64,000 nucleotides of DNA, from IMG/VR virus record IMGVR_UViG_3300033066_000360, positions 1-64,000 of that record; one strand, written 5' to 3'. Below, piece after piece: positions 11,531 through 34,939 of this stretch; the stretch's first letter is position 1; each line of letters starts with the position of its first letter. Position numbers and translations under genes: made by a program. Below the pieces are notes generated by a model. The model was not told the origin of the DNA. It made no database searches and saw only the letters and a list, made by a program, of their open reading frames with translations. Source of the stretch: a virus (lineage: Duplodnaviria; Caudoviricetes).

Positions 11531-13346
11531 TGGCCGGGTCTGATTCCGGCCATGTCTAGGCCAACCTATTTGGACTAGCACATGAACCAAGTCAGATCCC
11601 TACCGGGCTTGCAAGAGTCTGGTTTGGCCATAAATGTGCAGGCTTTCGGCCTTATGTGCCCATTGGGGCTAAGGAGTTGTTCACATGATCGGCATATACA
11701 TCGAAGAGCAAAACATCGGGACTGTTTATTGGTTCCACCCCCATCAGGAGTGGAGAGGGGCAGTGGAGATGGCTCTCCAGCACCAAATGGCAATCGTCAC
11801 AGTTGTCAATGCTCCCGCCCTTTCCTTCGTCGGCCTTCTTCTCATGGCCCAGAAACTCCAGCAGAATGGGGAGTTTCTGGCCGGAAAGCTCCAGATCGAC
11901 ACAGAAGAGGGGCAGTACACCTTCCAAGGACGCATCTGCTGCCCATGCGGAGATCCATTCTGTCCCAATCGTTTCCTGCACATGCAACAGGAGCTTGGTA
12001 TTGAATAGAGGCGCGTAGGGAGAATGTGAGAGAGGGTGATACCACAAACATCCTCTCTCATGTATATCCTATGTGAGTAGTGGATTGTTGGTAGTGTTGT
12101 ATTTCCAAGGGATATCACAGATGTTTCTTGGAAATATTATGTAAAGTAGCGTGGTAATACACGCCATTAGGAGGTCAATCATGTTGATTAAGGTTGAGAT
12201 TTCATCAGAAGAGCGTGTGTACATTCCCATTGAGTTTGAGCAAGTTCAAACGTTTGCGGTCGATAACAAGGTAGTTGTGGTTGGGTATATCCGCGAAGAG
12301 AAGGACTTGGCGGATTGGCTTTGCGCGGAGGAAGATGACTCTCGTTTCCGGGTGGAAATCCATCTGAACGTTCGGCAGGCAAAGAACTTGATGGGCTTTC
12401 TTGAAGGACGGAAACCCCGAAAGCACGAGTTGGACATTAACTTCGATTGGATTGGTAACAGCTAGGAGGTAAATCATGAGATATGTGGAAAAGAGACTGA
12501 CCTGTTTGCTTTCTGTTGCGCGAATGAACGCTCATAGGAATGGGCTGTTCTTTGGTGCGCGTTCGAATACTCCTTATGCGAAGGAGGCAAGGGAGTATTT
12601 GGAAAACGCGGAGAACATGATGGCGTTGGGGCTTTGGGGAACTGGTCTTATGTTTCTCAAGAGAGTTAGTCATCTGATCTATTGATTTTCCAGCGGGAAA
12701 TAGGAGGTGAATCATGAATGCTTTGATTGGGTTTCTGATACTGACAATGATTGTGTGGGCCGTAGCATGGCTTATCCGCATGTTTGGCTTGCCCAAGGAA
12801 TAGTATGTGGACTATTCTTATTGTTGGTGGGCTGCTCCTAATTACCGTGATTGTCATTCCTTGCGTTGTGGAGGAACGTAAGGAACACAAGCGCCGCAAG
12901 ATCTTTTGCGAGTGGGACTTGGAGAAAGGTGCTCGCTGGCAAATGCTCGGTTTGATAAAGGAGGACAGAGAACAAAGCGATGCAGAGTGGATCATTTTCC
13001 GGCGGGAAATGTTGAGGGAGAACTTGGCTACCTTAAGGAGGTTGCAACGTGAATACGAACAAGCTGGCGGAGAATTTCCGCCTGACAGCAAGTATTGAAG
13101 ATGGTTGGGTAGTAATTCGTGATAAGTATGATCAGATTATTACCCAAAAGCCCGGAACAAGCTCTGCTTCAATTGCAGAGGCGTTCATCGAAGCAGATCT
13201 CATCATGCGTGGGGAATACGTTCCTACAATGGAGGAATAAATGATTTATGTGATTCTCGGATTGATTCTCGGTGCATTGGCTGTCATAGCGGGATTGATT
13301 CTGTGGACAGCTTTGAGCAACAGGAATTTCTAGTAAAGGAGGATAC

Positions 13347-14045
13347 ATGAGAACGTTTCTTGTGGGAGGTGCAGTTCGTGATAAGTTGATGGGCATCAAA
13401 CCCAAAGACTTGGACTTCGCTGTTGAGGCGGAGTCTTATGAGAAGATGAGGCAAGGTCTTTTGGATCAGGGATTCAAGATCTGGCTTGAGAGTCCTGCGT
13501 TCTTTACACTACGATGCTCTATTCCCAATGGGCATTGGGGCAGAGAGTACGGGAAAGACGCAGACTTTGTTCTGTGTCGGCGCGATGGGATCTACACCGA
13601 TGGGCGTAGGCCCGATAGCGTGGGAGTTGGGACCATTCTTGAAGATCTTAAGAGGCGAGACTTCACGATGAATGCAATGGCTATTGCGGAGGATGGCACA
13701 TTGCTTGATCCCCATGGCGGCAAGGGAGACTTGGAACTCAAGCTCATTCGCTTTGTGGGTAATCCTACTGAGCGTATCTTTGAGGATGGTTTGCGGGTGT
13801 TGAGAGCGCTCAGATTCAGCGTAACCAAAGAAATGAAATTCGCAGGAGCAACAAGGAGTGCTCTTGAGTCAGATGATGCTGCGCGTTGTTTGGCGCGAGT
13901 CGCAGACGAACGCATTTATGAGGAGTTGAAGAAGATGTTTGTCAAAACTCGCACATCCTTGTCCTTGCTGAATGAGTTCCCAAGGATTAGGCGTGTGTGC
14001 TTTCAGGGCAAGGTTCGCCTAATGCCCACAATGGAGACTGTATGA
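13347..14045 (+). CDS. cca: class II tRNA nucleotidyltransferase (CCA-adding enzyme-like), compact
   Basis: LVGGAVRD, DLDFAV, DLKRRDFTMNAMA, EDGLRVLRALRF, VADERIYEELKKM motifs. Confidence 0.9.
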   Translation: MRTFLVGGAVRDKLMGIKPKDLDFAVEAESYEKMRQGLLDQGFKIWLESPAFFTLRCSIPNGHWGREYGKDADFVLCRRDGIYTDGRRPDSVGVGTILEDLKRRDFTMNAMAIAEDGTLLDPHGGKGDLELKLIRFVGNPTERIFEDGLRVLRALRFSVTKEMKFAGATRSALESDDAARCLARVADERIYEELKKMFVKTRTSLSLLNEFPRIRRVCFQGKVRLMPTMETV

Positions 14046-14298
14046 GTCGGAATATCATCGTTGTTACTGAGCAGAATCGCAAGGATATTGAGCAGATCAT
14101 TCCCGTTCAAGTTGGTATTGGGCATGTGATTGCTTTTGGAAATGATCGCGCCCTTGGCTATTGGGCAGATGTGACAGACCCAATAGCGAAGATGATTGGG
14201 CCTATTGGGAAACCGATGAGGTCTTCAACAAACGGTTGCCCAAGTCAATCGAGACTGTCTTCAACCTTATGAAACTGCCACATCGTGTAATTGCATAG

Positions 14299-14554
14299 GG
14301 GCCTACCGGCCTTAAAGAGGAGGTAGTGTGACAACTGCTTTGAACAAAAGTATGGATACTGTCAAGCGAAAGCTTGACGAGTCTGTCGAAATGCGCTCTG
14401 CGTACAAAAAGAGCGTAACTGAAAGTAGGCCTACCGGCCTTAAAGAGGGAGTGAAAGCTCCATTGAAGCAGACAGAAACGCTTATTACGGATGATGCGGG
14501 GATCGACTTGGTTCCCGACTTGTCCGAATATGAATAGTGGCCTACCGGCCATTA
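14299..14554 (+). repeat. three copies of GGCC-TACC-GGCC hairpin followed by (C/A)TTAAAG
   Basis: Copies at 14299-14312, 14427-14440 and 14538-14551. Confidence 0.85.
14328..14537 (+). CDS. hypothetical protein
   Basis: GTG start after GAGGAGG RBS. Confidence 0.5.
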   Translation: MTTALNKSMDTVKRKLDESVEMRSAYKKSVTESRPTGLKEGVKAPLKQTETLITDDAGIDLVPDLSEYE

Positions 14555-14619
14555 AAGGGGATATTCCCCACAATTTGCCCGTAAGGGCGCAAAATCCCGT
14601 AATGGGAAAGGAGATACTA

Positions 14620-15396
14620 ATGGATATCAAGACTTTTACTGTGCCCGTTCTGGTTGACCTGCATGCTGAGCGCCAGCCCGGTTTGCCGCCCCTGTACACC
14701 AAGGGTGGCCCTGCCGGTGATGGCGTGAAGCCGCTCGGTCAGCGTGGCAACCTCTTCGCTGAGTTCTGGTGCTCAAGCACCAACAAGGGCGAAGATGGCA
14801 AGCCGATTCCTTCCCCGATGCAGACGGTGCTCGGCGTGAAGCATCTGGCATACGCCAAGGGTCTGGTTGTGGACAGCGGACGCTTGAAGATCGAGAATGT
14901 TCAGGCGATTGATGAGGACGGTGTGATTCGTCCCGCAGTGTCGATCCCGGTCAGCGTTACCACCATTCAGGTGGAGCTTGATCCGACTCCCAAGCAGATC
15001 GAAATGGGCGCGATTGCCGTTACGGGTTCCAGCGAGAGCGCCAAGATCCTGCGCCGGACCAATGGCCGCGCTGTCGGTTCGCTCAAGCCTGCTGATGCTA
15101 ATGGGAAGCGGTATGCCCACAGCTTTGTGGTGCATGTCGTTGTTCCGGCTGAACAGGCTCGGAAGTTCGATGTTGCGGCTCGTCGCCAGATCGAAGTTAC
15201 GGACATGCATGACATTGAGGGCGCTCCCGGCTATGTGCGCGGCACTTGGGTTCAGATCACGAACATTGATGCGACTCTCGATAAGAACAAGGGTGAAGTT
15301 GCTTCGCCTGAGAAGGGCATGAAGATCGGCAGCGAAGTGGACAACAGCGGCATCAAGGCGTTTACGGAGCCGGAGTTCGTTCCGGCACAGCAGTAG
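14620..15396 (+). CDS. hypothetical protein co-transcribed upstream of the RNA polymerase gene
   Basis: AAGGAG RBS before ATG 14620; strong GC3 codon bias; acidic C-terminal tail. Confidence 0.7.
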   Translation: MDIKTFTVPVLVDLHAERQPGLPPLYTKGGPAGDGVKPLGQRGNLFAEFWCSSTNKGEDGKPIPSPMQTVLGVKHLAYAKGLVVDSGRLKIENVQAIDEDGVIRPAVSIPVSVTTIQVELDPTPKQIEMGAIAVTGSSESAKILRRTNGRAVGSLKPADANGKRYAHSFVVHVVVPAEQARKFDVAARRQIEVTDMHDIEGAPGYVRGTWVQITNIDATLDKNKGEVASPEKGMKIGSEVDNSGIKAFTEPEFVPAQQ

Positions 15397-15403
15397 TGTA
15401 GTT

Positions 15404-15443
15404 GGCCGGTGGGTAGAAATATCCACCGGCCTTTTCCTCTTTT
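15404..15443 (+). terminator. intrinsic terminator
   Basis: GGCCGGTGGGTA-GAAA-TATCCACCGGCC then TTTTCCTCTTTT. Confidence 0.75.
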
Positions 15444-15487
15444 CCGGTCAGAAATGATCTATGTAGAGCGGTAGCTCAAGGAGAAAA

Positions 15488-17980
15488 GTGGCAAAGTTCC
15501 CCGATACGATGACGATTATCGTCAAAGATACGGAGCACGATGGCTTGGCCTTCTGGAAGTGGCCAAGGAAGAACTACTGCACGAATCTCTTCTTCCAACA
15601 CGGGATAGACCACATCTATCTCGATTTCGGAGCAATCAAGAATCGTGACGTGTGGGTTCCCAAGCATTGGGATCGGATTCTCAAGTGGTTGGGAGAGAAT
15701 GGATATGGGCGGTACGAGTTGCGTGGGCATGGTCAGAACGCAAAGACCGGACTCATGCTCATGATTAACAAGAAGCAGCGTCATATGTTCGAAGCGCATG
15801 AGGATGCAATCCGATTGGGCGGACTGTTCGGTGCGCCTCTTTGGTATGGAGTGCAGAAGCGGAAGGATGTGATCGTGCTTCTCGTTCCCGACAACTGGCC
15901 GGGATGCGGAGATGGATACGGTGGAGCGAAGTGGCTCAAGTCCCCATTCCAGTTCCGCGCAAGTGCCTTCATTGGCACGAAGTTCGAAGAGGGATTTGGT
16001 ATCAAGGGGCAAATCGGGAACACCGTATACATCCCTGATGGAATCGACATGGTTCTGCCAATTTCCACTGTGAAAGGCCCAACCTTGGCCCTACTCAAGA
16101 AGATGGTCAAGGAAGAGTCGAAGTACGGTGATATGGCGGAATATCCGGCGTTCAAATTGAACAATCTGCGGATTGGTTACATGGCGCAGGCGAACAAGGG
16201 CAACATGCGAATGGGCTACATGGTTGCTCAACACTGGCCCGATTACATCTATGATGCAATGCACGATGATGTAGCTGCCGCCGCAGAGCGTGTCCGCAAG
16301 TTCAAGGAGGATCCTCTGTCCTACCTTGAGAAGGAGCGTGTCAGGGACGAAAATGGGGAGTTGGTGGACTCCTATCTGCTAGAGGATGATGACGGTGAGG
16401 AGACACAGGGCATTGAAGCCATTCTGCCGCAATACGCAAAGTATGTGTTCCGGACTGGCGATAAGAGCCTGTTGTATACCAAGACAATTGCTCGCATCAT
16501 CCAGAATCAGATCGCGCAAATGTCGCAGGATGCGATTCTGACTGGTGGCAAGAAGCTGCTCAGTGCAGTTGCCATGCCCATTCCAGCCCAGATGTATGGC
16601 AAGGCGAAGCTTGGCGTGATCTATCTCCATCCGAAGATGATGGGACCGTTCCGCGCAACAGGTGTGGCTGGTGTTATCCGACACCCGTATCCGTCTGAAA
16701 ACGCTGGTGTAAGCGTGCGAGTTGAGGCGGATCCTAGCGTCCCACTCCTGAATGATGCGGGACAGGAAGTGCGGAATGTGTGCTTTATTCAGGAAACCTT
16801 GCGAGTTACCGGCGTGGACTTCGACATGGATTCGCTTGGTCTACTGTCTGTTCCTCACAAAGACTCGTGGGAGATGATGGTTCTGGATCGGTGGGCCATG
16901 TTGCCACCGATTGCTACTGGTGGTGAACGAGTAGCATCCAGCGTTCCGCCGAAAGACTACATGGAGGCGTGGTGCAACGCCGCTGCCGGAGACATTGGGC
17001 TTATCACGAACTTGAAGAGTCGGCTTGCTGCCGCTCGTCATTGGGTAGATAAGTCGTGGTGGCCTCTGATTCAGGAGACGGATGACAAGCTCTCTGTAGA
17101 ACTGCAAGCCGCCGTGGATCAGGCTAAGCATAACCAGAAACCCGACAAGCAGGTTATCAAGGATGCTCAGGAACTGTTGGTGAAATTGAACTCCATTCCC
17201 GAAGATAGCTCATACATCCGTCTGCTTGGCAACAAGCCGGAGCGATGGTGGGCGTTCAACAAGGCAGGGAAGTTCAATGCGCCAGATCCTGAGGCGTTGT
17301 CTCTGCGGACTCCACTCGGACGACATGTGCGGAAGCATCTTCCGCTCATTCCAAGCAAGGGGATGGAAGTATGGGCGAATAGCTTCTTCGTGAACAAGAT
17401 CAAGGAGCGCCCCGGTCCCGGCTATAACGCTGGAGTGGCGTTGTGGAAAGAGATGGGAACCCATCTGGAAGTTATTGCGAAAGCTGGCTTCTACTGGGAA
17501 GAGGCGAAGGAACGTCGCGCAGACGTTGGGAAGTGGTGGACTTCTGTATGGGCGGAGCTTGCAGAGGGAGATCAGACATTCCTTGAGCAAGCAACCAGTG
17601 CGATCTGGCGCTTGGCGTTCATGACAGACGAAAGCAATCAGAACCGGCTGTGGGGAGCGCATCTGCCCACGATCTTTCGGTTGCTTGAGCAGGATCTTCC
17701 GCGTCCGACAACTGGCGATCTTCCACCACCGGAGCCGATTGATGTTAAGGGCCGCTTGATTGGAATTGGTCTGAACAAGATCAAGTCTGATGCGATTCTT
17801 GAGGTTCGCGGACTTCGAAATGGCGTGAACGCGAGAGGAGAAGTCCATCAATATGTGCTGACTGACGACAATCCAGAAATGGGTTGGATGGTTGTTGACG
17901 CTACCTTGCCGGATGGATTCAAGGGGCGATTGCGTGTCAAGCCGCAATGGAATGCCTCTAGCTCGTTTCAAACTTGGTAG
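15488..17980 (+). CDS. single-subunit double-psi beta-barrel RNA polymerase (YonO / eukaryotic RdRP-like)
   Basis: Family motifs in correct order: GDGYG, PFQFR...GIKG, PISTVK, IRHP, DFDMD (codons 16817-16831), DIGLITN, AVDQAK. Confidence 0.8.
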   Translation: MAKFPDTMTIIVKDTEHDGLAFWKWPRKNYCTNLFFQHGIDHIYLDFGAIKNRDVWVPKHWDRILKWLGENGYGRYELRGHGQNAKTGLMLMINKKQRHMFEAHEDAIRLGGLFGAPLWYGVQKRKDVIVLLVPDNWPGCGDGYGGAKWLKSPFQFRASAFIGTKFEEGFGIKGQIGNTVYIPDGIDMVLPISTVKGPTLALLKKMVKEESKYGDMAEYPAFKLNNLRIGYMAQANKGNMRMGYMVAQHWPDYIYDAMHDDVAAAAERVRKFKEDPLSYLEKERVRDENGELVDSYLLEDDDGEETQGIEAILPQYAKYVFRTGDKSLLYTKTIARIIQNQIAQMSQDAILTGGKKLLSAVAMPIPAQMYGKAKLGVIYLHPKMMGPFRATGVAGVIRHPYPSENAGVSVRVEADPSVPLLNDAGQEVRNVCFIQETLRVTGVDFDMDSLGLLSVPHKDSWEMMVLDRWAMLPPIATGGERVASSVPPKDYMEAWCNAAAGDIGLITNLKSRLAAARHWVDKSWWPLIQETDDKLSVELQAAVDQAKHNQKPDKQVIKDAQELLVKLNSIPEDSSYIRLLGNKPERWWAFNKAGKFNAPDPEALSLRTPLGRHVRKHLPLIPSKGMEVWANSFFVNKIKERPGPGYNAGVALWKEMGTHLEVIAKAGFYWEEAKERRADVGKWWTSVWAELAEGDQTFLEQATSAIWRLAFMTDESNQNRLWGAHLPTIFRLLEQDLPRPTTGDLPPPEPIDVKGRLIGIGLNKIKSDAILEVRGLRNGVNARGEVHQYVLTDDNPEMGWMVVDATLPDGFKGRLRVKPQWNASSSFQTW

Positions 17981-17988
17981 GAGGATTT

Positions 17989-18363
17989 ATGTGGACACTG
18001 ATTTTCTGCAAGAAGGATGCTTGGGATAATCAAGAGGAGCGTGAGATAGCAAAAAGCAATCCTCATGTGCACAATGAATTTGAAGATATCCTGGAAATGG
18101 GAATAATCTGTAAAATTCAGTTGCATGTTTACCGGGCTGGTCGCGCAAGACTTGACCAGCCCAGTCATGCTCCAATGGAATGGAGTCATCCATATGTCCA
18201 GCGAACGGTCAGGGATCTCAAGAAAGATTACAAGGAGTCCATGAAGGATTTTATGTGGGCAGATTCTCAGGGATTTGCATCCGGGGATTTGGACTGTGAC
18301 AATGCATGGTATGAAATTAGAGATTCTAATGGAATACCTATTGACAGGTTCGTGCAGTTCTGA
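17989..18363 (+). CDS. hypothetical protein
   Basis: AGGAGG RBS then ATG 17989. Confidence 0.6.
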   Translation: MWTLIFCKKDAWDNQEEREIAKSNPHVHNEFEDILEMGIICKIQLHVYRAGRARLDQPSHAPMEWSHPYVQRTVRDLKKDYKESMKDFMWADSQGFASGDLDCDNAWYEIRDSNGIPIDRFVQF

Positions 18364-18369
18364 TACGAT
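18341..18369 (+). promoter_or_regulatory. sigma70-type promoter for the Y RNA array
   Basis: TTGACA-17 bp-TACGAT with extended -10 TGn; predicted +1 at 18376 coincides with the first Y RNA 5' end. Confidence 0.75.
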
Positions 18370-18375
18370 ACTAAA

Positions 18376-18461
18376 GGCGTGGTGTTAGGGATACCGCTAC
18401 TTCAAAAACTATCTTACAGGTTCTGCCGAAAGGCAAGCTGCGGTCCCGTAAATTTCCCGCC
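18376..18461 (+). ncRNA. Y RNA-like 1 (short type)
   Basis: GGCG-T-GG...CC-CGCC terminal helix, GGGATACCGC/GCGGTCCC second helix, TACTTC, TGCC-GAAA-GGCA hairpin. Confidence 0.7.
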
Positions 18462-18474
18462 GGAAAAGTAAAGT

Positions 18475-18607: not shown

Positions 18608-18620
18608 CAAAATGAATACA

Positions 18621-18759: not shown

Positions 18760-18772
18760 GAACAACAGAATA

Positions 18773-18859: not shown

Positions 18860-18871
18860 GAATGTAAATAC

Positions 18872-20397: not shown

Positions 20398-21129
20398 TGA
20401 CAACTTTTGCAAGGATCGACTTTTCGAAATTCAAAACTCAGTATGCCACGACCGAGAAACAGGTCAAGCGTACCGATGATCTCAAACAGAAGAAGGCGCG
20501 TATCGCTCTGGCGGCTATTAAAGCCGCACGAGCCAAGGAGCATAACAAGGCTCGTTTCCGGCATCTGCTTCCGCGCTACAAGGCGTACGTTAAGTGGTGC
20601 GAGAACGATCAGGAGCGAGTCTACACCGCAAGGTGGGTGATGCGTCTCTTTGATTACGTGGTTGAACTCGGTTACCAGCCGGAGAAGTGGGATCAGCCAA
20701 ACGACAGCCTTTGGGCGTGGAAAGAGTGCCTGCTTGCGTATTCTCGGCACCGCATCAAGGAACTGAGCTAGGTAAATTGGGGAAGAGGGGAAACTCTCTT
20801 CCCCTTTCCACAGGAGGAACATCATGAGTTACTATTCCAATACTTTCCGAACGGAAATTGAAGATGCTCGCAAAAGTGCGCGAAAGGCCATTCTGAAGGG
20901 AATCATTGACTGGTTCAATAAAAAGAGCGTGGTTTCGTTTTATTATCCCACCACCCGAGACATGGAAGAACTTCGCGCAAAGATGAAGCTCGCTGACTAC
21001 ATACATACACGTGATGGCGGAGAATGGTACACAAAGGCGCAACTCCGACAGGGTTCCCCTGAAATTATCTGCACATACCATGGACTCCAAGAGTTTGTGA
21101 CCAACGAGTATTGGAAGCTTAGCGCATAG
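20397..21129 (+). other. two hypothetical genes (20397-20771, 20824-21129) separated by a GAAA-loop hairpin at 20779-20807
   Basis: ORFs with GGAGG RBS. Confidence 0.55.
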
Positions 21130-21155
21130 CCCTACCGGACTTAAAGGAGGTTCCG

Positions 21156-21743: not shown

Positions 21744-23661
21744 ATGAACTACAGGGAGATCAGAAAGGACAAGGTAGCCGCTGCCCATTATGATCAGTGG
21801 ATTAAGGACAACCCCGACAAAGCTGATGCCATGGGAGAGTTGTCGGCTGATCTTGAGGCAACAATCGCGACAATCGCAGTCTTTCATGGAATGGGATTGG
21901 TTGCATTCATTAAGGATGAAGCCGAAAGAAACATTAACCAAATTCTGGAGAAGATGGAAGCTTTGGGATACAAGTTTCTGCTCAAGGAGGAGTGATGGGA
22001 ATGATGAATCAAAGGGAGGAGCAGATTGTTCATCTGCATCACTCACAGGTGCAGGACTTTTTTGCTATCGCAGAAGCGATTCGCAAAGATTATCGTGACT
22101 ACGCAACGGGTATTAAGTGTCCCGTTTTGACTCGCGGAGACATTGCGGATCGGTTTCGCGGGTTTTGGGATGTTCACAAGAATCAGTACTCGTTTCCTGG
22201 GTACACAAAAGTAACGGTAAAGAAGATCGCCCTAGAGGTGGTTCGCTATTACCATGGGGAGGTGGCAAATGTTTGATCTTGCACAAGCAAAGACGCTTAT
22301 TGAGACTATTGTGTTATTGATTATATCGTTGTGGACATTCAAAACACGATCCGATTGGAATCAAGATGGTCCAATCTGGCGGGTTCTCAATATCTTCATC
22401 ATCATATTCCTTATCTGGCAGTACGTCACTCTTCGCGGAATGAAGGTGACAGTAGGAGGTTAGTGTGGGCAATCTAAAGATGCTCGTCTGTGCCTTGATT
22501 GACGCAGGGCGTGAAGTCAAGGTTGTTCCAGATCATCGAAGATGGTTCGTTTCCTTTACTCTTGGTGGTGTTGCGGAGGAGAATCCCCGCTGGACTACTT
22601 ATGAGAAGTTTGTAGTTGAGTTTGCCGCCGACTGGATCTTCCTCTCCACCGAGCACTTCGGAGACGCAGATGGAGAGAGGCATCAGAGATGGCAGGAAAA
22701 AGATGATGAGGTATTCTCGGAAACAGAAGCTTGGAAGAAACTTTTGAGGAGGATCCAAAGTGGCCTCTAAAATCCCTGAGAATTATTTCCCGCTGGAAAA
22801 GGATGAGCGCGTTCAATGGTTTTCTTCTCCTCATGAAGATACGGTTCTCGTGAAAACAAGATATCCGGCAATCTTTGTGGAGGAAATATCGCTTTGGCAC
22901 ATCATTCTTGTCCCAATTCTTACGGAAAACGAATGGACTTGGTTCAAGATTACTCAGCGCGAAAATCCAGAATGGGTCGTGTTTCGATGGGAACTGGATC
23001 GGATGCTCATTGCAATCTGTAATGCACATCCTGATAAGGAGGTTGAATGAACAGGTGGGTCTTAATCCGCTTTGCTTGTTACTATACGGGATACCTTCTT
23101 TTTAAGATAGTGTTGGGATTTCAGTGGGAATGGATTATTGAGATCCCAGTTTGTCTGTTCTATCTAGTGTTGAGTGCAATTCTTTCTTGGGAAAAACAGG
23201 AGGCAAAATGATTCTCAAAAAGCTTTTCTGGGCGCTATTCTTTTTCTCTGGAGCACTTCTTGCCCACTGGATTATGAATCAGCTAATTGGAGTTCCACTG
23301 ATATTCATACCAATCTTTCACATTCCAATGTTTATCTTCTCTTTGGTGCTCTCAATAGTCAGTAAGGATGATTAAACAACCGCCCTACCCTATCGTGTTG
23401 CCCTACCGGGCTAGCAGAGTGGGTGTTTTTACTAGGAAATAATGTATGACAAATCGAAATGAACGGCTCAAACTTGTTGCGGCAGAGAAGCGTGCTCTTG
23501 GCTTTCCACCTGTTTCACCAAGCAAATATGCTTACTATGACCAGACTGAAGTAGCTCTAAAGTCAATGGAGCGTATCAAAGAGATTGCTAAGGACTTGAT
23601 GGCAGAGAAGAAGCGTCTTCGAAGCGCAGTTCGACAACTCGTAAAAATGAAGGTAGAATAA
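21744..23661 (+). other. run of small hypothetical genes (21744-21995, 21992-22276, 22254-22463, 22465-22770, 22760-23050, about 23208-23375, 23446-23661)
   Basis: Overlapping start/stop junctions and RBS; two are hydrophobic. Confidence 0.55.
23631..23659 (+). promoter_or_regulatory. sigma70-like promoter before the first tRNA
   Basis: TCGACA-17 bp-TAGAAT; +1 about 3 nt before tRNA-Arg at 23669. Confidence 0.5.
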
Positions 23662-24290: not shown

Positions 24291-24401
24291 TATGCAGAGC
24301 AGGCACTCCTGTAGACACGGCGCTATGCAGAAGGTGGCTATACCGGTAGGATCCTACTGGGACGAGCGGAAGCGAGAGATACCTCCCATTCTCTCTTAAA
24401 T

Positions 24402-27537: not shown

Positions 27538-27541
27538 CTAT

Positions 27542-27614
27542 GTATGCAGACTCAAACGGTGATGAGAACACTCTGATAAGGTGTCCGTGTGAGGTTCAAT
27601 TCCTCTTGCATACA
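27542..27614 (+). tRNA. tRNA-Ile(GAT)
   Basis: ACACT-CTGATAA-GGTGT. Confidence 0.82.
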
Positions 27615-27637
27615 CTACAGCCCTACCGGGCTAATAA

Positions 27638-27709
27638 GCACATATAGCTCAGTGGAAGAGTTAGCGCCTTCGAAGCGCGGGGTCGGGAGTTCGAATCTCT
27701 CTATGTGCT
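27638..27709 (+). tRNA. tRNA-Arg(TCG)
   Basis: GCGC-CTTCGAA-GCGC. Confidence 0.88.
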
Positions 27710-27870: not shown

Positions 27871-28015
27871 TAGCGTAAGGATGCATACCTGCGCTAACCT
27901 TGGGTAGTGAAGGGTTGTGCACTACTGCTATCTGGTGACGCTACAATACCAGCGCCTCTTGCCGACGAAAGACGCAAGGAGTTCTTGCTGGTTCTCTCCA
28001 AAAGAATCAGGTGAT

Positions 28016-28088
28016 GCGGATATGGCTCAGTTGGTAGAGCAGGATCTTGCCAAGATTCAGGTCGCGGGTTCAAGTCCCGCTATTCGCT
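28016..28088 (+). tRNA. tRNA-Gly(GCC)
   Basis: GGATC-TTGCCAA-GATTC. Confidence 0.92.
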
Positions 28089-28161
28089 TGAGCGGTTCGA
28101 CTTTTAGTTTTCCAAAGGTAAATCTAGGTCGTCCGCTCTTTTATGTTAAAAGGAGGTCGGA

Positions 28162-28680
28162 ATGAAGAATATCTTTGTCATCAGCGATACGCACTTCGGT
28201 CACGAGCTTATGACCACCGTACTGACAGATCAAGGCAAGCGTCTCCGGCCTTGGAATACGACTGAGGAGATGGATGAAGTTCTCATTGCCAATTGGAATT
28301 CTGTTGTTACTCCAAGTGACAAGGTTTACCATCTGGGAGACGTATTCTTCCCCCGTAAAGGGAGAATGCTCTTGTCTCGACTCAATGGAGATAAGGTTTT
28401 GATTCGTGGGAACCATGATGGTCATCCAATCAAGGATTACCTAATGGGATTCAGGGACATCCGGGCCTTACATGTGTTGGACGGAGTAATCATGACTCAT
28501 GTTCCAATCCATGAACAGAGTCTTTCCCGCTGGAAAGGCAACATTCATGGACATTTGCACGAGCATCGAATTCTTGATCGGCGTGGATTGCCTGATCCGC
28601 GTTATACTACTGTCTGTGTGGAACACATCAACTACACTCCTAAAGAGTGGTCGGTGGTTCGTAGTGAACTGGTAGCTTAG
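28162..28680 (+). CDS. calcineurin-like metallophosphoesterase
   Basis: SDTHFGH, YHLGDV, RGNHD, THVP, NIHGHLH. Confidence 0.9.
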   Translation: MKNIFVISDTHFGHELMTTVLTDQGKRLRPWNTTEEMDEVLIANWNSVVTPSDKVYHLGDVFFPRKGRMLLSRLNGDKVLIRGNHDGHPIKDYLMGFRDIRALHVLDGVIMTHVPIHEQSLSRWKGNIHGHLHEHRILDRRGLPDPRYTTVCVEHINYTPKEWSVVRSELVA

Positions 28681-28738
28681 TGGCTAAAGCAGCATGCTCT
28701 TAACATGCCTATCGTGGGTTCAAATCCCACCCGGTTCT
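28666..28738 (+). tRNA. tRNA-Lys(CTT)
   Basis: GCATG-CTCTTAA-CATGC; 5' end overlaps the phosphoesterase stop codon. Confidence 0.88.
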
Positions 28739-28739
28739 T

Positions 28740-28811
28740 GTACTCGTGGTGTAATGGTTAGCACGATAGGCTGTGGCCCTGTTAGAGCCGGTTCAAATCC
28801 GGTCGAGCACT
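28740..28811 (+). tRNA. tRNA-His(GTG)
   Basis: ATAGG-CTGTGGC-CCTGT. Confidence 0.85.
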
Positions 28812-28827
28812 TAAATAGGAGGATTAA

Positions 28828-29615
28828 ATGGAAACAATGTGGGTTATTAAGCGGGATCGAGCCATTGAAGGTTCATCCGATATTATCTTTATTTGCAAGA
28901 CGGAACATACAGCAAGGTATCTTGTTGAAATACTGAAAGGAGCCGAGCAAAAAGCTCGCAAGTTCAATAAGACTCAATCTGTTACCATTGATAAGACTTC
29001 ATGGACAGTTAGTAGAGGAGATTCGTTTGAATACGACAGTTATCCAGTTTATTAGAGATATAGTTCTTGTGTTTGTTATCACTCTCCCGTTCTTTGCTAT
29101 CGGGCTTCTAATACAAATGGTTCATAAATTCAGGAGGAAATAATGGAAATTACAAATACAACCTACATCATTACATTCATCACAAAGGGTGGGTCTTATA
29201 ACACCACAATGTTTGATCCTGTTGATGGTGGTTATCAAGCAATTGATAAGTTTATCGCTGCCTACATGAAGGCAAACCCAAGTATTGTTGAACATACAAA
29301 GAGAATGGTCATTGGAACACCGGTTTTTAGAGAGCGTGCCATTGGAAAGGACTTCAATGATGTTTATGAGGTGGTCAAGTGAAAACAGCGGTGCAGTATC
29401 TCAATGCCGCAGATCGAGTATTCAAAATACAACAGGACTACAGGTTTGTCGGAGTTGACTATGAGCGAAGAGTTGGTCTAATCACAGAGGCAAAGAATCT
29501 TGCCGCCGAGTTTGGACTAGATCAGTCCATATACTTGGCGAATTGTACTCCAGAAGAGTATTTCCTTGGATTGGAAAGACTTCTTGGGAGAGCGGCAGTA
29601 GACGCTGTAGAATAA
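28828..29615 (+). other. small hypothetical genes (28828-29055, 29143-29382, 29379-29615)
   Basis: AGGAGG RBS before the first two; overlapping junction for the third. Confidence 0.55.
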
Positions 29616-29624
29616 AAGAATAGT

Positions 29625-29696
29625 GGGTTTGTAGCTCAATGGCAGAGCGGGAGACTTTTAACCTCCGCGTCGTAGGTTCGATTCCTACCAGACTCA
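29625..29696 (+). tRNA. tRNA-Lys(TTT)
   Basis: GGAG-A-CTTTTAA-C-CTCC. Confidence 0.88.
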
Positions 29697-29712
29697 TATA
29701 AAATTGAATAAA

Positions 29713-29784
29713 GGGTGTGAAGCGTCATGGCGATGCACTGAACTCCAAATCCAGCAACAGCAGGTTCGATTCCTGCCACGCCCG
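29713..29784 (+). tRNA. tRNA-Trp(CCA)
   Basis: CTGAA-CTCCAAA-TCCAG; acceptor GGGTGTG/CACGCCC. Confidence 0.87.
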
Positions 29785-29887
29785 TAGAGACTAGTGGAGG
29801 TTTCCAACCATCACGAATGCTCGAAGAGAAGCTTGGCTCTTAATAATTCAAGCAGTTCCGTGGGGTCAGCTTCAAGACTCCACAAAT

Positions 29888-29960
29888 GGCTACTTGGCCA
29901 AGTGGAAAGGCGTCTCCCTGCAAAAGAGATACCGCGCTGGTTCGATTCCAGCAGTAGCCT
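29888..29960 (+). tRNA. tRNA-Cys(GCA)
   Basis: TCTC-C-CTGCAAA-A-GAGA; U73. Confidence 0.88.
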
Positions 29961-30121
29961 CTTGGGGTGGATGAGAGCGAAAGCTTAAGGATCCTCAACT
30001 GTATATCCAGAACAGTGATTATGGACGTTTCCGAAGCCCGATAGCTCGGACGAGAGCCGTTGCTCGTAATAATGTCGGGAGTTGTTATGGGACCATTCTC
30101 TCTAAAATGAACGGCCCATAC

Positions 30122-30192
30122 GCGAATATGGCCGATAGGCTAGGCTCCACGCCTCCAACGTGGCTAGACGGGTTCGATTCCTGTTATTCGCT
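30122..30192 (+). tRNA. tRNA-Gly(TCC)
   Basis: CCACG-CCTCCAA-CGTGG. Confidence 0.85.
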
Positions 30193-30411
30193 TTTGCCGC
30201 ACATGTTCAGAGTCAATTCCACACCTAGGCAATATGGATGCGATATGACATGCTTACGCAATCCTTCTCTCTCTTCGGATCAGTAAGTAGGGACGGACAC
30301 CAGCACCGGCAAGGCTAACGCTGGATTTTGCTAGTTACTACAAATTAGCTCTTATCCTTTCACTGTTGTAAAGGACGCTTTGGCCATTGTGCAACGTTAA
30401 CAATGGCACAT

Positions 30412-30483
30412 GATCTAGAAGCTCAATGGACGAGCAAGATTTTCCTAAAATCTGGGCTGTGGGTTCGAGTCCCATCTAGATCT
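30412..30483 (+). tRNA. tRNA-Arg(CCT)
   Basis: AGATT-TTCCTAA-AATCT. Confidence 0.9.
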
Positions 30484-30555
30484 TAGCCAACCGCGTGGTT
30501 GGTGAAGAGGGTAGAGGTTTTTATTCAGGGTTATCTTTCCAGCTGCCCGTGGTGA

Positions 30556-30849
30556 TTGAGCCTTTACCCTCTTAGTCTTTTTCAGGAGGAACTTATGAAT
30601 GACAGAACATGGGCATTTCTAGAAGCAATCAAGAACATGGCGCTTAGCATTATGCCGCTATATGTCGCGTTTGAGAATGATAAATTCCGCTTAGATCTTG
30701 TCGTAGAGATGAGACAAATGGAACAAACCCTCAAAAAGCTACATGCCAGTATCAAGAAGTCGGGGACTTGGGGGGCATCCGAGAGGGAACAGTACATTAC
30801 TATCGACAAGAGAATGGATGAGATACTGTATATCGGTGAAAGGGGCTAG
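30556..30849 (+). CDS. hypothetical protein
   Basis: Likely start at MNDRTW after GGAGG; its stop codon overlaps the 5' strand of mini-tmRNA A. Confidence 0.5.
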   Translation: MSLYPLSLFQEELMNDRTWAFLEAIKNMALSIMPLYVAFENDKFRLDLVVEMRQMEQTLKKLHASIKKSGTWGASEREQYITIDKRMDEILYIGERG

Positions 30850-30911
30850 AAAGGCATTCGACAGCGAGAGTGGGTTCAAACGGCCCAGTCTTATACCCGA
30901 TACTTTCGTTG

Positions 30912-31008
30912 GGGGAAGAAGGGTTTCGACGGTAAGTGATGGCATAAATGGACTTGTCTAAAACCCAGATGATCTTATCGGACGCAGGTTCAACTCCTGC
31001 CTTCTCCA
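30912..31008 (+). ncRNA. ssrA: mini-tmRNA B (97 nt, tRNA-like domain only)
   Basis: GGGGAAG-AAGGGTTTCGAC 5' end; P2 GGTAAG/CTTATC; 3' end GGACGCAGGTTCAACTCCTGCCTTCTCCA closely matches the tmRNA 3' consensus; G3-U70. Confidence 0.72.
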
Positions 31009-31412
31009 TATAAAGAGGAATATGTTGCAATTATTTTAAGCGCAAATTCATACGCATCTTTAGCGCGTATTCCTGATTTTGGGGGCTTTGTCCAAAGCTC
31101 AAGATTATCTGGAGAATTGTCATCACGAATGCCATTCTTATGATGAACCGTTTCTTCCGGAAGCAGATATCTTCCAATCATGGATTCCATGACCAAGATG
31201 TGTTCAAAAATATAATGTCCCTTTCGGGGATGTCCGGGTGGACGAAGAATGAGCTTGTAGCCCTTTTTATGCAAAGATCCTTTGCTTTTCTTTCTCTGAA
31301 AACTGGCTCTTTCTAGGTTAAAGCATCTAATACACGACTTGGCTCTAATTCCGCATTCCTGTCCACAAATCGGACAAGTCTTTTTGCGATTCCAACTCTT
31401 TTGTTTATTCAT
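30990..31412 (-). CDS. HNH homing endonuclease with N-terminal zinc finger, antisense to the RNA array
   Basis: CPICG...CIRC, EHILVMESMIGR, VHHKNGIRDDNSPDNLELW. Confidence 0.9.
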   Translation of the reverse strand: MNKQKSWNRKKTCPICGQECGIRAKSCIRCFNLERASFQRKKSKGSLHKKGYKLILRPPGHPRKGHYIFEHILVMESMIGRYLLPEETVHHKNGIRDDNSPDNLELWTKPPKSGIRAKDAYEFALKIIATYSSLYGEGRS

Positions 31413-31473
31413 ATAGGGAATTATACACGGATTAATGGGTTTGATTCCCCGCTAGTCCACTAATAGGAGGAAC

Positions 31474-31995
31474 ATGATCTTTGAGGTGGAGATCCGCAAG
31501 AAGGTCTTTGAATTCGGATATGTCCGAGTAGAAGCCAAGAATGAAGAGGAGGCTCTTCAAGTTGCCCAAGACATTGCAGATGGTGATGAAGATGGGATTG
31601 AATGGGATTCCATGACGGAAGCAATCGAAGACTCTCTAGAAGCAAGAAATCCTGCCGAGTGGACTAACAACGTCATGATTGGCGACAGAATGGCTGTCCC
31701 GGTCCTGCAAGAAAACGGCTCCTATATATTGGAGTAAGGAGGAGTGATGATCGAGTTTCTTAAACGCAAGGGCTTTGCTCTTGTTCCTGAGTGTGGCCCA
31801 GATTATTGGCACAAGACATTTCCAATCGGAAATATTGTCTGGAGAATCAGCGTCTCTTTTGACGATTGGGGAGTGCAATTCATCTCTATTGGCGGGACCG
31901 ATAGGGGATGTGTCACTCTTTTCAGGGAAGACATGAAGCTTCTTCTACCCATTCTTCGAACAATGACCCTTCTCATGGGAAAGAATGAAGTGTAG
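31474..31995 (+). other. two hypothetical genes (31474-31737, 31744-31995)
   Basis: AGGAGG RBS. Confidence 0.55.
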
Positions 31996-32004
31996 AATGG
32001 CCGT

Positions 32005-32077
32005 AGTCCTATGGTCAAATGGTATGACGGAATGCTCTGAACATTCAAGTCGTTGGGTTCAATTCCCCGTGGGACTG
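32005..32077 (+). tRNA. tRNA-Gln(CTG)
   Basis: GAATG-CTCTGAA-CATTC. Confidence 0.85.
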
Positions 32078-32228
32078 CTATAGGAGATAAATATGTTTCA
32101 ATGTATCGGAAGTGATGCGTATTGCTTGGCTGCAATCAAGCTTACGGAAAACATCTTTTGGGGCGTGGTTCTTGTAGTGGTTCTCTTCGGAGTTGGCTAC
32201 TGGTTCTACAGACTCATAAAGGATTTGT

Positions 32229-32301
32229 AGTCTCTTAGCTCAATTGGCAGAGCGGAACACTTTGAATGTTTAGGTTAGTGGTTCAAGTCCACTAGGGACT
32301 G
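32229..32301 (+). tRNA. tRNA-Gln(TTG)
   Basis: GAACA-CTTTGAA-TGTTT; acceptor AGTCTCT/AGGGACT. Confidence 0.88.
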
Positions 32302-32329
32302 TAAATAGGAGGAAATATGTATAAGATCT

Positions 32330-32707
32330 ATGGAGAAATGCACAGAGCCTTCCCTTATTAATTATGATGATCGCTTTAAGCTTTACCATCTGAGTGATGA
32401 CTTTGCATGGTTTACGACCGGAGATCCATACGAGTATTGTTCTACGGAGGACGTTGGTCGGGGAAGGGATCCAATAATTCCCAAGGATTCTCAAGATGAG
32501 TTCTTGAGAATTGCCTTTGATGTTCCATATGGAATATTCTTTTCAGAACGCAATACAATGGATTGTGTCAATGGAACTGCCAATTGGCTTGAAACGGAGG
32601 ATGAAACAGAAGTGCTTAGGGGGAAGGATATCCCAGTAAGCAAGTTTTGCGGGGCCATTCTTGCCAGCGGTGGTGAGCTTTGGTTCCCATTGGGGAAGCA
32701 ACTTTAG
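32330..32707 (+). CDS. hypothetical protein
   Basis: Similar in-window to 49269-49670 (AWFTTGD..Y vs AYFTTQ..W; ASGGELWFP vs KSGGMVYLP). Confidence 0.55.
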   Translation: MEKCTEPSLINYDDRFKLYHLSDDFAWFTTGDPYEYCSTEDVGRGRDPIIPKDSQDEFLRIAFDVPYGIFFSERNTMDCVNGTANWLETEDETEVLRGKDIPVSKFCGAILASGGELWFPLGKQL

Positions 32708-32715
32708 GGAGGACT

Positions 32716-33699
32716 ATGGGATTAGCATATATTGGAAAAGTGATTCAAGTTCGCCCAATTGAGGGTGCAGACAGGATCCATTCCGTTCAAGTTGTGTGTG
32801 GTAAGGGTGGGATTTGGAATGGTGTTGCAAGTAAAGAAATAGTAGAAGGCAATCTTGTAGAAGTTTATCTTCAAGACGCAATTCTTCCAGATGGAGAAAG
32901 ATTCGACTTCATGGATAAATATCACCGTAGAGTATCTATGAAGAGATTCAAGGGCGCTCCTAGCGATTGTTTGATTATGTCTTTGGCAGATAGTACTGCT
33001 GATTTACTTGCTAAAAGCGCGCCTCTTTGGGTGGGATTCGACTTGACCGATCTTCTTGGCGTTAAGAAGTACGAGAAAGAGGTTATCTATGGACAGGGAG
33101 AGATTATGGGCGGATTCACTACTCTCCTTCCCAAGACAGATGAACCCAACTTCCAGTCTGTTCCAGATATCGTAAGGGAAACTTTTGCGTATCCATGGAG
33201 TGCAACTCTTAAGTACGATGGAACTTCTTGTACTATTCTAAAGACCGATGAGGGTGAATTGCAGGTCTTTTCTCGAAATATGCGCATTCGAGAGGGATCC
33301 AATAATTACTGGCGTATCGTAGATAAATATGATTTACGAAATGCCATTCTCCCCGGAGAAGCTTTCCAGATGGAAATTGTCGGACCTGGAATTCAGAAGA
33401 ATCCCCTTGGTCTCAAGGAGATTGATGCTTTTGTCTTCAATGCCTTTTGGGAATGGAAACCGGTCCATTATGTTAGGAATTTCCAGAGAATATTGATTCC
33501 GGCAGCAGAGGAAGTGTGTCGATATGGCCCAAGAGATGTTCCAAGCAACGAAGAGCTATGGAAACTTGCAGAAAGAACATATAAGAATGGGACTATTGCC
33601 GAAGGGGTTGTCATTCGGCCACAGCATGCAGACTTTCCAAGAAGCACAATGGGAGAACGGCTGTCTTTTAAGGTAATCAATCTTCTTTACGGGAAATAA
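32716..33699 (+). CDS. RNA ligase (Rnl2 / DRB0094 family)
   Basis: N-terminal IRPIEGADRI-type OB module, PKTDE, motif I KYDGTS, VFSRN, MEIVGPGIQKNP, motif IV EGVV, motif V FKVIN. Confidence 0.9.
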   Translation: MGLAYIGKVIQVRPIEGADRIHSVQVVCGKGGIWNGVASKEIVEGNLVEVYLQDAILPDGERFDFMDKYHRRVSMKRFKGAPSDCLIMSLADSTADLLAKSAPLWVGFDLTDLLGVKKYEKEVIYGQGEIMGGFTTLLPKTDEPNFQSVPDIVRETFAYPWSATLKYDGTSCTILKTDEGELQVFSRNMRIREGSNNYWRIVDKYDLRNAILPGEAFQMEIVGPGIQKNPLGLKEIDAFVFNAFWEWKPVHYVRNFQRILIPAAEEVCRYGPRDVPSNEELWKLAERTYKNGTIAEGVVIRPQHADFPRSTMGERLSFKVINLLYGK

Positions 33700-33700
33700 T

Positions 33701-34021
33701 ATGGGCTGGATTGGTGTTGACTTAGATGGAACACTTGCGGAATATGGGGGCTGGAAGGGGCCAAACAACATCGGCCTGCCGGTTCCTAAGATGTTAAAGC
33801 GTGTCCAGAAATGGCTGAAGGAGGGCGCAGACGTAAGAATCTTCACGGCCAGAGCCTATATTCCTGAGCAGATTCCGCCGGTTCAGGCGTGGTGCGAGAA
33901 GCATCTTGGTGTGATTCTTCCCGTCACGAATGTAAAGGATTTCGGTATGTCCGAACTTTGGGATGACCGCGCCATACAGGTTATTCCGAATACCGGCGAA
34001 AGAGTGGACGGAAAGATATGA
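33701..34021 (+). CDS. HAD-superfamily phosphatase (PNK 3'-phosphatase-like)
   Basis: IGVDLDGTL, IFTAR, LWDDRA. Confidence 0.8.
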   Translation: MGWIGVDLDGTLAEYGGWKGPNNIGLPVPKMLKRVQKWLKEGADVRIFTARAYIPEQIPPVQAWCEKHLGVILPVTNVKDFGMSELWDDRAIQVIPNTGERVDGKI

Positions 34022-34242
34022 AAGAGTATAAAGATACCGGATATTTCGTAACAAGAGCGGGCGTCGTTGTCGGAAAGCGGGGAAAGATACTGAGCCAGTT
34101 TTTTGACTCGCGAAAGAAACTTTGCGTGGAAATCTTCTACGGCAACGGAATGAGCCGACAGACACGGGTGCAGGATATGGTCTATGAACTTTATGGGACA
34201 GGAAAGAAACCTAAGACCAGGAAGCGCAGAATAACACTATGA
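34018..34242 (+). CDS. small protein resembling an HNH-endonuclease N-terminal fragment
   Basis: YFVTRAGVVVGKRGKIL...RVQDMVYELY resembles NUMOD4-HNH N-termini but has no HNH motif. Confidence 0.35.
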   Translation: MKEYKDTGYFVTRAGVVVGKRGKILSQFFDSRKKLCVEIFYGNGMSRQTRVQDMVYELYGTGKKPKTRKRRITL

Positions 34243-34658
34243 AAGAAAAGTGGAAACTTGCGATGGAGAAAAGAGACACAAGAAACCGGCACAAGATATT
34301 CGTGTATGGGAGTAATCTGGCGGGAAGAAACGGAGCCGGAAGCGCCTTGCACGCCAAGAAGTATTTCGAGGCTAAAAATGGCGTCGGATTTGGTAGGACG
34401 GGAAACGCATACTCGATTCCGACGAAGGATAGTTCCCTTAACCCGCTTTCCCTAAAAACTATCCGGGAATACGTTACCGAGTTTCTACGCTACGCTTCCG
34501 AACACCCCGAACTGGAATTCTTTGTGGTCGCCATCGGAACGGGTCTGGCGGGTTATTCCCACGAACAAATCGCGCCGATGTTTAAGTACGCTCCGCCAAA
34601 CTGCGAGTTACTGCCGGAATGGATAAGGATCAATAACAATGGAAAAGTGGGAAATTGA
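34239..34658 (+). CDS. A1S_2505-like phage protein (macrodomain-like)
   Basis: IFVYGSNLAGRNGAGSA, GRTGNAYSIPTK, IGTGLAGY, IAPMF. Confidence 0.8.
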   Translation: MKEKWKLAMEKRDTRNRHKIFVYGSNLAGRNGAGSALHAKKYFEAKNGVGFGRTGNAYSIPTKDSSLNPLSLKTIREYVTEFLRYASEHPELEFFVVAIGTGLAGYSHEQIAPMFKYAPPNCELLPEWIRINNNGKVGN

Positions 34659-34697
34659 GGAGCGAAGGAACAAAGAGCGAACGGACAGAAAGCATAG

Positions 34698-34868
34698 ACA
34701 GCGTGCATTCCAGAGCAAATCCCCGCTGTTGAAGCATGGTGCTTTAATTGGCTTGGAGTTCGACTTCCGGTAACAAATGTCAAGGATATTGCAATGATTG
34801 AATTGTTGGATGACAGAGCAATACAGATTATTGCGAATACCGGACTAAGAGCAGATGGAAAAGAATAG
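34698..34868 (+). pseudogene. start-less C-terminal copy of the HAD phosphatase
   Basis: Translates TACIPEQIPAVEAWCFNWLGVRLPVTNVKDIAMIELLDDRAIQIIANTGLRADGKE*, homologous to the end of 33701-34021; preceded by an in-frame TAG. Confidence 0.8.
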
Positions 34869-34939
34869 CCCTACCGGGCAGAGTGAGGCTAGGATTCGTA
34901 TTCGACTAGCCTTATTCTTATTAATGGCGAATACAATAG

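Follow-up and report, generated by a model that had tools for sequence, protein, structure and literature searches.

A short GC-rich element with the invariant core CCTACCGG, which recurs on one strand of a phage genome, is proposed here to be the DNA promoter of a free, non-virion RNA polymerase of 830 amino acids (aa) encoded by the same phage (positions 15488-17980, + strand). We assign this reading a probability of roughly 0.55. The DNA analysed is a stretch of 64,000 nucleotides (the window) of IMG/VR record IMGVR_UViG_3300033066_000360 (Duplodnaviria; Caudoviricetes), which makes up the first 64 kb of a circularly assembled phage genome of 84,153 bp; the coordinates 67377, 68581 and 83484 used below are genome positions beyond the window. 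A preliminary description, made from the window alone, had viewed the elements as hairpins with a TACC loop and offered three explanations, namely promoters of the phage RNA polymerase, boxB-like antitermination sites or RNA processing signals, the first of which is favoured by the present analysis.

Enrichment, orientation and location of the motif

In 8-mer counts, CCTACCGG was the most over-represented word genome-wide, rivalled only at longer word lengths, and then only by words from tRNA T-arms. It was found 13 times on the + strand and twice on the − strand of the genome, whereas an order-3 Markov model predicts 0.96 occurrences (p = 4e-11). Within the window, 11 of the 12 copies lie on the + strand; dinucleotide shuffles led to an expectation of 0.71, and none of 100 shuffles reached 12. 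The strands are thus used unequally, and the enrichment is well beyond that of shuffled sequence. All eight copies listed in the preliminary description were recovered (cores starting at 11599, 14302, 14430, 14541, 21131, 23402, 27622 and 34870), as was the TTAAAG that directly follows four of them. Its statement that copies occur on the + strand held for all of those listed, but a − strand copy at 24350 had been missed; also absent from its list were the + strand copies at 6527, 7793, 10512, 68581 and 83484 and the − strand copy at 67377.

Eight strong copies, all on the + strand, have about 24 bp in common, which can be written (TAG)-(0 or 2 nt)-G-[G/C]-CCTACCGG-[G/C]-C-(TTAAAG / TAGNAG / TAATAA) and is followed by purine-rich sequence. 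Their cores start at 14302, 14430, 14541, 21131, 23402, 27622, 34870 and, as a full copy of the motif, at 83484. When scored with a position weight matrix (PWM) built from these eight copies themselves, they reached 27-36 bits, with a runner-up at 11599 (15 bits) and all other sites below 13 bits. The remaining copies (6527, 7793, 10512 and 68581 on the + strand, 24350 and 67377 on the − strand) consist of the core only. The 8-mer is identical across copies, strand orientation is strict, and the conserved flanks are asymmetric. As the sequence immediately 3' of the copies reads TTAAAG, TAGCAG or AGAGTG, with no T-run and hence no U-tract, the copies are not themselves intrinsic terminators, genuine examples of which were found elsewhere by a terminator scan. 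A promoter scan revealed no sigma-70-like match adjoining the copies. A 16-mer scan of IMG/VR returned three matches that lacked clustering of the motif and were taken as chance, and a literature search for the CCTACCGG motif yielded nothing relevant. A Chi-like site was considered and ruled out by the conserved flanks and the non-coding positions.

Genes are arranged in a + strand block from 6.4 to 55.3 kb, with − strand genes at 1-6.4 kb and 55.3-84 kb forming a late block that contains the portal gene (1509-3089) and a gene for a 3002-aa tape measure protein. Six of the seven strong copies in the + strand block fall within the 18% of that block that is non-coding even under maximal open reading frame (ORF) calls (p = 2e-4). 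The seventh, at 14541, is coding only if a 301-aa ORF starts at 14491 instead of at the ATG at 14620, which is supported by a Shine-Dalgarno (SD) sequence. In this block, 6-70 nt separate a copy from the start codon or tRNA that follows it. The earlier statements that the elements are mostly intergenic and that several are located on stop codons were both borne out, the latter by copies that overlap or follow the TAG codons at 14535-14537 and 21127-21129.

Three of the strong copies are arranged in tandem. The first (14294-14321), cATAGGGG-CCTACCGG-CCTTAAAG-AGGAGG, scores 34 bits and is followed 16 nt further on by a GTG codon at 14328. The second (14422-14449) lies within a possible 69-aa ORF (14328-14537) and resembles the first over approximately 35 nt, so that one is probably a duplicate of the other. 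The third (14533-14560) is followed by small hairpins in the 5' untranslated region and by the ATG at 14620, the start of a 258-aa ORF for which an ESM Atlas search gave weak YorF leads alone (score 0.84). Further along the + strand, the copy at 21123-21150, which carries a C.A mismatch in its potential stem, lies 15 nt 5' of the ATG (21156) of a metallophosphoesterase gene, and that at 23394-23421 lies 5' of an ORF (23446-23661) and of the start of an array of 33 tRNA genes. Within this array, the copy at 27614-27641 occupies the entire 22-nt spacer between tRNA-Ile (ending at 27615) and tRNA-Arg (starting at 27638). The last strong copy in the window (34862-34889) is directly followed by a 16-bp hairpin and then by a gene at 34940. 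The late operon contains the full copy at genome position 83484, in antisense orientation. The intermediate copy at 11591-11618 (15 bits) comes right after the last of the T-rich terminator modules described below, 86 nt before an SD-supported ATG at 11685. Among the core-only copies, that at 7793-7800 precedes the ATG of an HNH homing endonuclease gene (7814) by 13 nt, whereas those at 6527-6534, within a DUF4326 gene, and 10512-10519, within ORF 10349-11068, are possibly due to chance.

The 830-aa polymerase and its relatives

Neither Pfam (RNA_pol families included) nor PHROG yielded a match for the 830-aa ORF; its identification comes from a structure model, Foldseek and a sequence signature. 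The protein family is tiny, with 16 representative clusters among 1.84 billion proteins. An AlphaFold2 (AF2) model built from a 19-sequence alignment had a mean predicted local distance difference test (pLDDT) score of 86.5; an earlier model from five sequences (pLDDT 45) was not used. Foldseek matched the model to gp62 and gp64 of the Thermus phages P74-26 and P23-45 (8F5M, 8F72) with an E value of about 1e-11 and a TM score of 0.57 on the target, and further fold matches, among which was 8H2M, included plant RDR2, Neurospora QDE-1, P23-45 gp96 and the virion polymerase of crAss-like phage phi14:2. The family alignment shows no variation at R398-x-P400 and D444-x-D446-x-D448, and [RK]xPx{20,100}DxDxD is the signature by which such enzymes were found by Chaban et al. 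(PMC10770324). The same signature is present at residues 861-902 of the 3002-aa tape measure protein. Sequence searches of the 830-aa protein against the PDB and an hhalign comparison with gp64 gave nothing significant (hhalign probability 0.2%, with only DxDxD aligned). Judged by its modelled fold, the protein is a free single-chain two-barrel RNA polymerase and not one of the T7/N4 type, and the phage would accordingly encode two RNA polymerases, this free enzyme and one fused to the tape measure protein. The comparison with the N4 virion RNA polymerase made in the preliminary description is not upheld by the fold, which groups the enzyme with P23-45 gp64, P74-26 gp62, QDE-1 and RDR2.

Closer relatives of the polymerase (47-69% identical) were present in Logan/ENA on contigs of up to 84 kb, from genomes of 82-84 kb. 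None was detected in IMG/VR, JGI metagenomes or INPHARED with single proteins or with an alignment of the family (A1) as query. Alignment A1 likewise found nothing in GTDB genomes, a second alignment (A2) was too diverse for a pattern search, and a GTDB scan with P0009 led to a single relative, on which the comparative support for the motif is based. The P0009 polymerase is 25% identical to the 830-aa protein and is encoded on an 85.6-kb contig (DAOUFG010000093.1) of a metagenome-assembled genome (MAG) of the Thermoflexales (Chloroflexota), in a low-GC, phage-like (prophage-like) island of approximately 29 kb adjoining a tRNA-Asn gene. A search of 401 Chloroflexota genomes recovered this island only.

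In the 22.6 kb around the P0009 gene, the top strand-specific 9-mer was CTACCGTTT, with six copies on the polymerase strand, none on the other and 0.07 expected. The relative's top strand-specific word can be given as ATCTACCGTTT, with the fuller consensus cATCTACCGTTT(T), and 5 of the 13 exact copies of TCTACCGTTT in the 5.6-Mb MAG lie within the island. The hexamer CTACCG is common to this motif and CCTACCGG, in the same orientation relative to genes; by a rough count, a hexamer would be common to two unrelated top words of such lengths in well under 1% of cases. The six single sites in the relative are found close to gene boundaries (one, for instance, 48 nt 5' of an SD-bearing ATG), have no hairpin potential and are followed by a T-run, CTACCGTTTTTG. 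Only one two-barrel signature is present on the contig, which has neither a giant tape measure gene nor a T-rich module. Chaban et al. argued along the same lines that the AT-rich motif is missing from relatives that do not have the fused polymerase (PMC10770324). As far as can be judged from sequence, the relative argues for a link between the CTACCG core and the free polymerase family, and for conservation of a sequence rather than of a hairpin.

Comparison with phage P23-45 and the T-rich modules

Experimentally known promoters of single-chain two-barrel phage polymerases are those of P23-45 only, the promoter of YonO being still undefined in a 2017 paper. In P23-45, the tape-measure-fused enzyme gp96 initiates at 14 TTATTCCTTTA promoters, which lie in a cluster and overlap with conserved terminators, whereas the free enzyme gp64 uses seven dispersed GC-rich sites between 2.4 and 37.7 kb, whose core, tCTAGRGGC, lies at approximately −16 to −9, with transcription starting 8-10 nt past it (Chaban et al. 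2024, PMC10770324). ChIP-seq has been carried out for both P23-45 polymerases. During pre-early transcription, transcripts end in a T-tract that at the same time belongs to the following promoter (TTS1 at 340, TSS2 at 346, "ccccccctTTATTCCTTTA"; PMC10770324).

A similar division is apparent here. A region at 8690-11530 (+ strand) contains six T-rich modules, with T-runs starting at 8720, 9045, 9355, 9738, 10240 and 11521. In a k-mer scan, each module was seen as a GC-rich terminator hairpin with TTTTATTTTTTTAT(C/T)TC(C/T)T immediately after it, on the + strand only and after a small ORF; the T-rich word that follows the terminator hairpin in six copies is TTTTATTTTTTTATYTC. These modules form a cluster (8.7-11.5 kb), whereas copies of CCTACCGG are scattered between 11.6 and 34.9 kb. 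In analogy to P23-45, the modules are proposed to form a separate class of combined terminators and promoters, which would belong to the tape-measure-fused virion polymerase; the scattered CCTACCGG elements would then fall to the 830-aa enzyme. The overlap of terminator and T-rich sequence resembles that of P23-45 closely, the sequence at 10240 being "ctccccTTTTATTTTTTTATTTCCTTCA", as compared with "ccccccctTTATTCCTTTA", and including TTATT(T)CCTTCA. The P23-45 motifs as such are absent from the phage: when TTATTCCTTTA was sought in the genome with up to two mismatches, no strand bias was observed apart from the six T-rich modules.

The likeness to P23-45 thus extends to both classes of signal: seven to eight strand-specific GC-rich cores of about 8 bp, dispersed over early and middle genes, with a cognate enzyme of the same single-chain two-barrel fold, and a second, clustered T-rich class on conserved terminators, together with a second polymerase fused to the tape measure protein. 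The putative position of the core at about −16 to −9 is also compatible. Differences from the gp64 system are, however, evident. The cores CCTACCGG and tCTAGRGGC have only YCTA in common, the core of the present phage is invariant and capable of forming a hairpin, and no sequence similarity is detectable between the two polymerases.

Proposed organization of the promoters

Since the motif fills the 22-nt spacer between tRNA-Ile and tRNA-Arg, transcription would have to start at or just before the first nucleotide of tRNA-Arg, placing the GC-rich core of about 8 bp, (C)CTACCGG, near −16 to −9 as in P23-45. A short A/T-rich stretch following the core (CTTAAAG, CTAATAA) would be melted, and initiation would take place at a purine about 16 nt past the first C of the core. 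The base at this distance is A or G in 8/8 strong copies, and the sequence from this presumptive +1 position reads AGGAGG, AGGGAG, GGGGAT, GAGGTT, AGTGGG or similar. In three copies (14541, 34870 and 83484) a stable hairpin begins there, and the short leaders would open with an SD sequence, a 5' hairpin or a tRNA. Long stable hairpins that start directly after two of the copies (83495-83525 in the genome and 34882-34920 in the window) could be the 5'-terminal stem-loops of the proposed transcripts or, in the late operon, a short antisense RNA.

The promoters would drive early and middle modules of RNA metabolism, namely the 258-aa ORF behind the tandem copies, the gene for the phosphoesterase, the array of tRNAs and the block from 34.9 kb onwards, while the copy at 83484 would give an antisense transcript within the late operon. 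Transcription from the three tandem copies would cover the 69-aa and 258-aa ORFs and end at a strong intrinsic terminator (15404-15431, + strand) located between these copies and the polymerase gene. That three copies precede the operon with the RNA polymerase, as claimed in the preliminary description, is correct as to their upstream position, but the intervening terminator suggests that the polymerase gene is probably transcribed from elsewhere.

Several points weigh against this interpretation. The promoter role is deduced from position and analogy, and the choice of the 830-aa rather than the tape-measure enzyme as the reader likewise draws on one relative and the P23-45 system, the comparative support coming from that single relative. 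The gp64 core shares (Y)CTA alone with the motif, and CTAGRGG, with seven copies on the + and five on the − strand, is not enriched in the phage. A strong terminator splits the tandem copies from the polymerase gene, and the copies at 83484 (full) and 68581 are antisense in the late block. Furthermore, three additional TCTACCG copies in the island of the relative form the 5' arms of long inverted repeats, TCTACCG-N24-31-CGGTAGA (−24 to −38 kcal/mol), that lie in intergenic positions among small ORFs 5' of the polymerase gene (6598-7405 of locus L008 on contig DAOUFG010000093.1) and are unaccounted for by a simple promoter model.

If the CCTACCGG elements are promoters of the 830-aa enzyme, the promoter consensus and the polymerase clade would be new, while the kind of system is already known. 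The family is unrecognised by Pfam and PHROGs, and a short, sharply defined candidate promoter would make sigma-free recognition by a minimal relative of cellular RNA polymerases testable in vitro. The arrangement suggests that the strategy of P23-45, in which an injected tape-measure polymerase is followed by a free one, each with its own signals, extends past Thermus phages, and with CTACCG present in so distant a relative, the recognition code may be a conserved one. In a more far-reaching version, which we regard as doubtful, this rare clade of sigma-independent two-barrel polymerases (16 clusters) would read a compact CTACCG-containing core, from the present tRNA-rich phage to a Chloroflexota prophage, and the hairpin in the phage would in addition be read in extruded or single-stranded form, an N4-like mechanism that had arisen independently in an unrelated polymerase fold.

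Hairpin potential and a possible role at the RNA level

The core and its flanks can form a GC stem of 4-5 bp, extending to 8 bp at 14541, that is capped by a TACC loop. As RNA, the predicted energies were −7 to −11 kcal/mol in seven of the strong copies and −0.7 kcal/mol at 21131. Two of the five stem pairs are constant; one is CG in six copies, GC in three and unpaired in four. The GC pair occurs in the three tandem copies at 14.3-14.5 kb and nowhere else; two of these have about 35 nt in common and look like duplicates of each other. Stems are broken at 21131, by the C.A mismatch at the switching pair, and at 68581. Overall, 80% of stem cells were paired, as against 73% in shuffles (19/500 shuffles as high), and the covariation score was equalled by 52/500 shuffles and hence not significant. 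The compensatory stem changes noted in the preliminary description are thus reduced to one CG/GC switch that is confined to tandem, probably duplicated copies. The hairpin potential is real, yet the compensatory changes amount to about one event, and the capacity for a hairpin of 4-5 bp is probably an incidental or accessory property of the core.

The possibility that the C(UACC)G hairpin acts in the transcript, where it would direct processing, affect stability or be bound by an RNA-binding or antitermination protein of the phage (boxB/put-like), was considered in this light. The stability of the hairpin in seven of eight strong copies and the single CG-to-GC switch would fit such a role, as would the RNA biology of the phage, which encodes Ro60, a CCA-adding enzyme, an RNA ligase and the 33 tRNAs, and the presence of one copy within a tRNA-tRNA spacer and of three 5' of the strong terminator that precedes the polymerase gene. 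However, the covariation is not significant, two stems are broken, the six single sites of the relative lack a hairpin, and the full copy at 83484 is antisense to late mRNAs. UACC is not known to be a stable tetraloop. An Rfam 15 scan of the window matched tRNAs and one tmRNA but no family at the motif, and no terminator is consistently found downstream; with regard to boxB/nut sites, only the cluster at 14.3-14.5 kb precedes a strong terminator. No N-like family was recognised among 30 proteins scanned, such proteins being small and poorly modelled. Specific support for antitermination or RNA processing was therefore not obtained, and a function at the RNA level is considered unlikely. Other TACC-loop hairpins with unrelated stems (41974, 44058 and 46384) were located in coding sequence and occurred in near chance numbers.

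Resemblance to the promoters of the N4 virion polymerase is found in the short, hairpin-capable element, its invariant loop, the three tandem copies near the early region and the involvement of a phage polymerase. N4 promoters have stems of 5-7 bp and 3-nt loops, compared with stems of 4-5 bp and a 4-nt loop in the present phage; moreover, the N4 enzyme is T7-like and that of the phage two-barrel, the hairpin potential is not kept in the relative and the stem covariation is not significant. The promoters of T7, T3 and SP6 offer a similar parallel, as an element of about 20 bp is conserved, ends A/T-rich (that of T3 ends in ...CACTAAAGGGAGA) and is followed by a purine-rich initially transcribed sequence; the present phage, however, is without a T7-like polymerase, given the lack of a Pfam match for the 830-aa protein and its two-barrel fold.

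Other explanations

It is also conceivable that the CCTACCGG elements are promoters of the tape-measure-fused virion polymerase, in which case the T-rich modules would merely be its terminators. Of the two P23-45 enzymes, it is the virion polymerase whose promoter is more strongly conserved and by which the gene of the non-virion polymerase is transcribed (PMC10770324), and in the present phage the core is invariant and three copies lie 5' of the polymerase gene. The way to that gene is, however, blocked by the terminator; the relative keeps a CTACCG motif without a tape-measure polymerase; the dispersed copies match the distribution of gp64 sites; and the T-rich modules reproduce the overlap of terminators and gp96 promoters in P23-45, down to the TTATT(T)CCTTCA at 10240. 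This assignment is accordingly judged distinctly unlikely.

A sequence-specific pause or termination signal for a phage polymerase, needing no U-tract and placed where transcription units end, could explain why copies lie on or right after the stop codons at 14535-14537 and 21127-21129; the motif of the relative is followed by a T-run (CTACCGTTTTTG), and P23-45 has an unusual conserved terminator motif. This is nevertheless very unlikely, as no U-tract follows the copies in the phage, classical, conserved terminators are already present, and promoters explain more readily than terminators why one copy occupies a tRNA-tRNA spacer of 22 nt and why three are crowded into 240 nt around a small ORF. 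If the element were instead an operator, bound by a regulator of the phage or of its host, or some other signal at the DNA level, this would agree with the partly palindromic arms (GSCC...GGSC) and the TCTACCG inverted repeats of the relative, but such a function is most improbable in view of the strict orientation and asymmetric conserved flanks, unfit for a symmetric dimer site, and of the failure to recognise a regulator among the 30 early proteins scanned.

Additional sequence features

The strong terminators at 9681-9704, 10205-10236 and 15404-15431 have a common apex, GTAGAAATA, which suggests a conserved, possibly polymerase-specific type of terminator. Just 5' of the SD sequence of the polymerase gene, a GAGC-GGTA-GCTC hairpin (15462-15473) represents a TACC-loop hairpin in the opposite orientation and is possibly due to chance; the + strand has GAGC-TACC-GCTC near 41970 as well. 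Promoters close to the sigma-70 consensus and with a TG-extended −10 element were detected at 18341-18369, just before a Y-RNA-like array, and at 35537-35565 and 37487-37515, and the phage apparently also uses the host polymerase.

The genes associated with two of the core-only copies were identified as a homing endonuclease gene with HNH_3 and NUMOD4 domains (7814-8317) and a gene for a DUF4326 protein (6436-6729). In locus L008 of the relative, a near-palindrome, (G)TTGGGAGCCCAAC, was found in six to seven copies on the polymerase strand and in none on the other (5829, 6956, 10078, 11239, 11378, 17220 and 21823), three of them inside the polymerase gene. The tetranucleotide GTAC is under-represented throughout the phage genome (105 observed, 240 expected, ratio 0.44), suggesting pressure from a host restriction system. 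Finally, ACTGGTGG, which may be compared with the Chi sequence of E. coli, GCTGGTGG, is strand-biased genome-wide, by 10 copies to 2.

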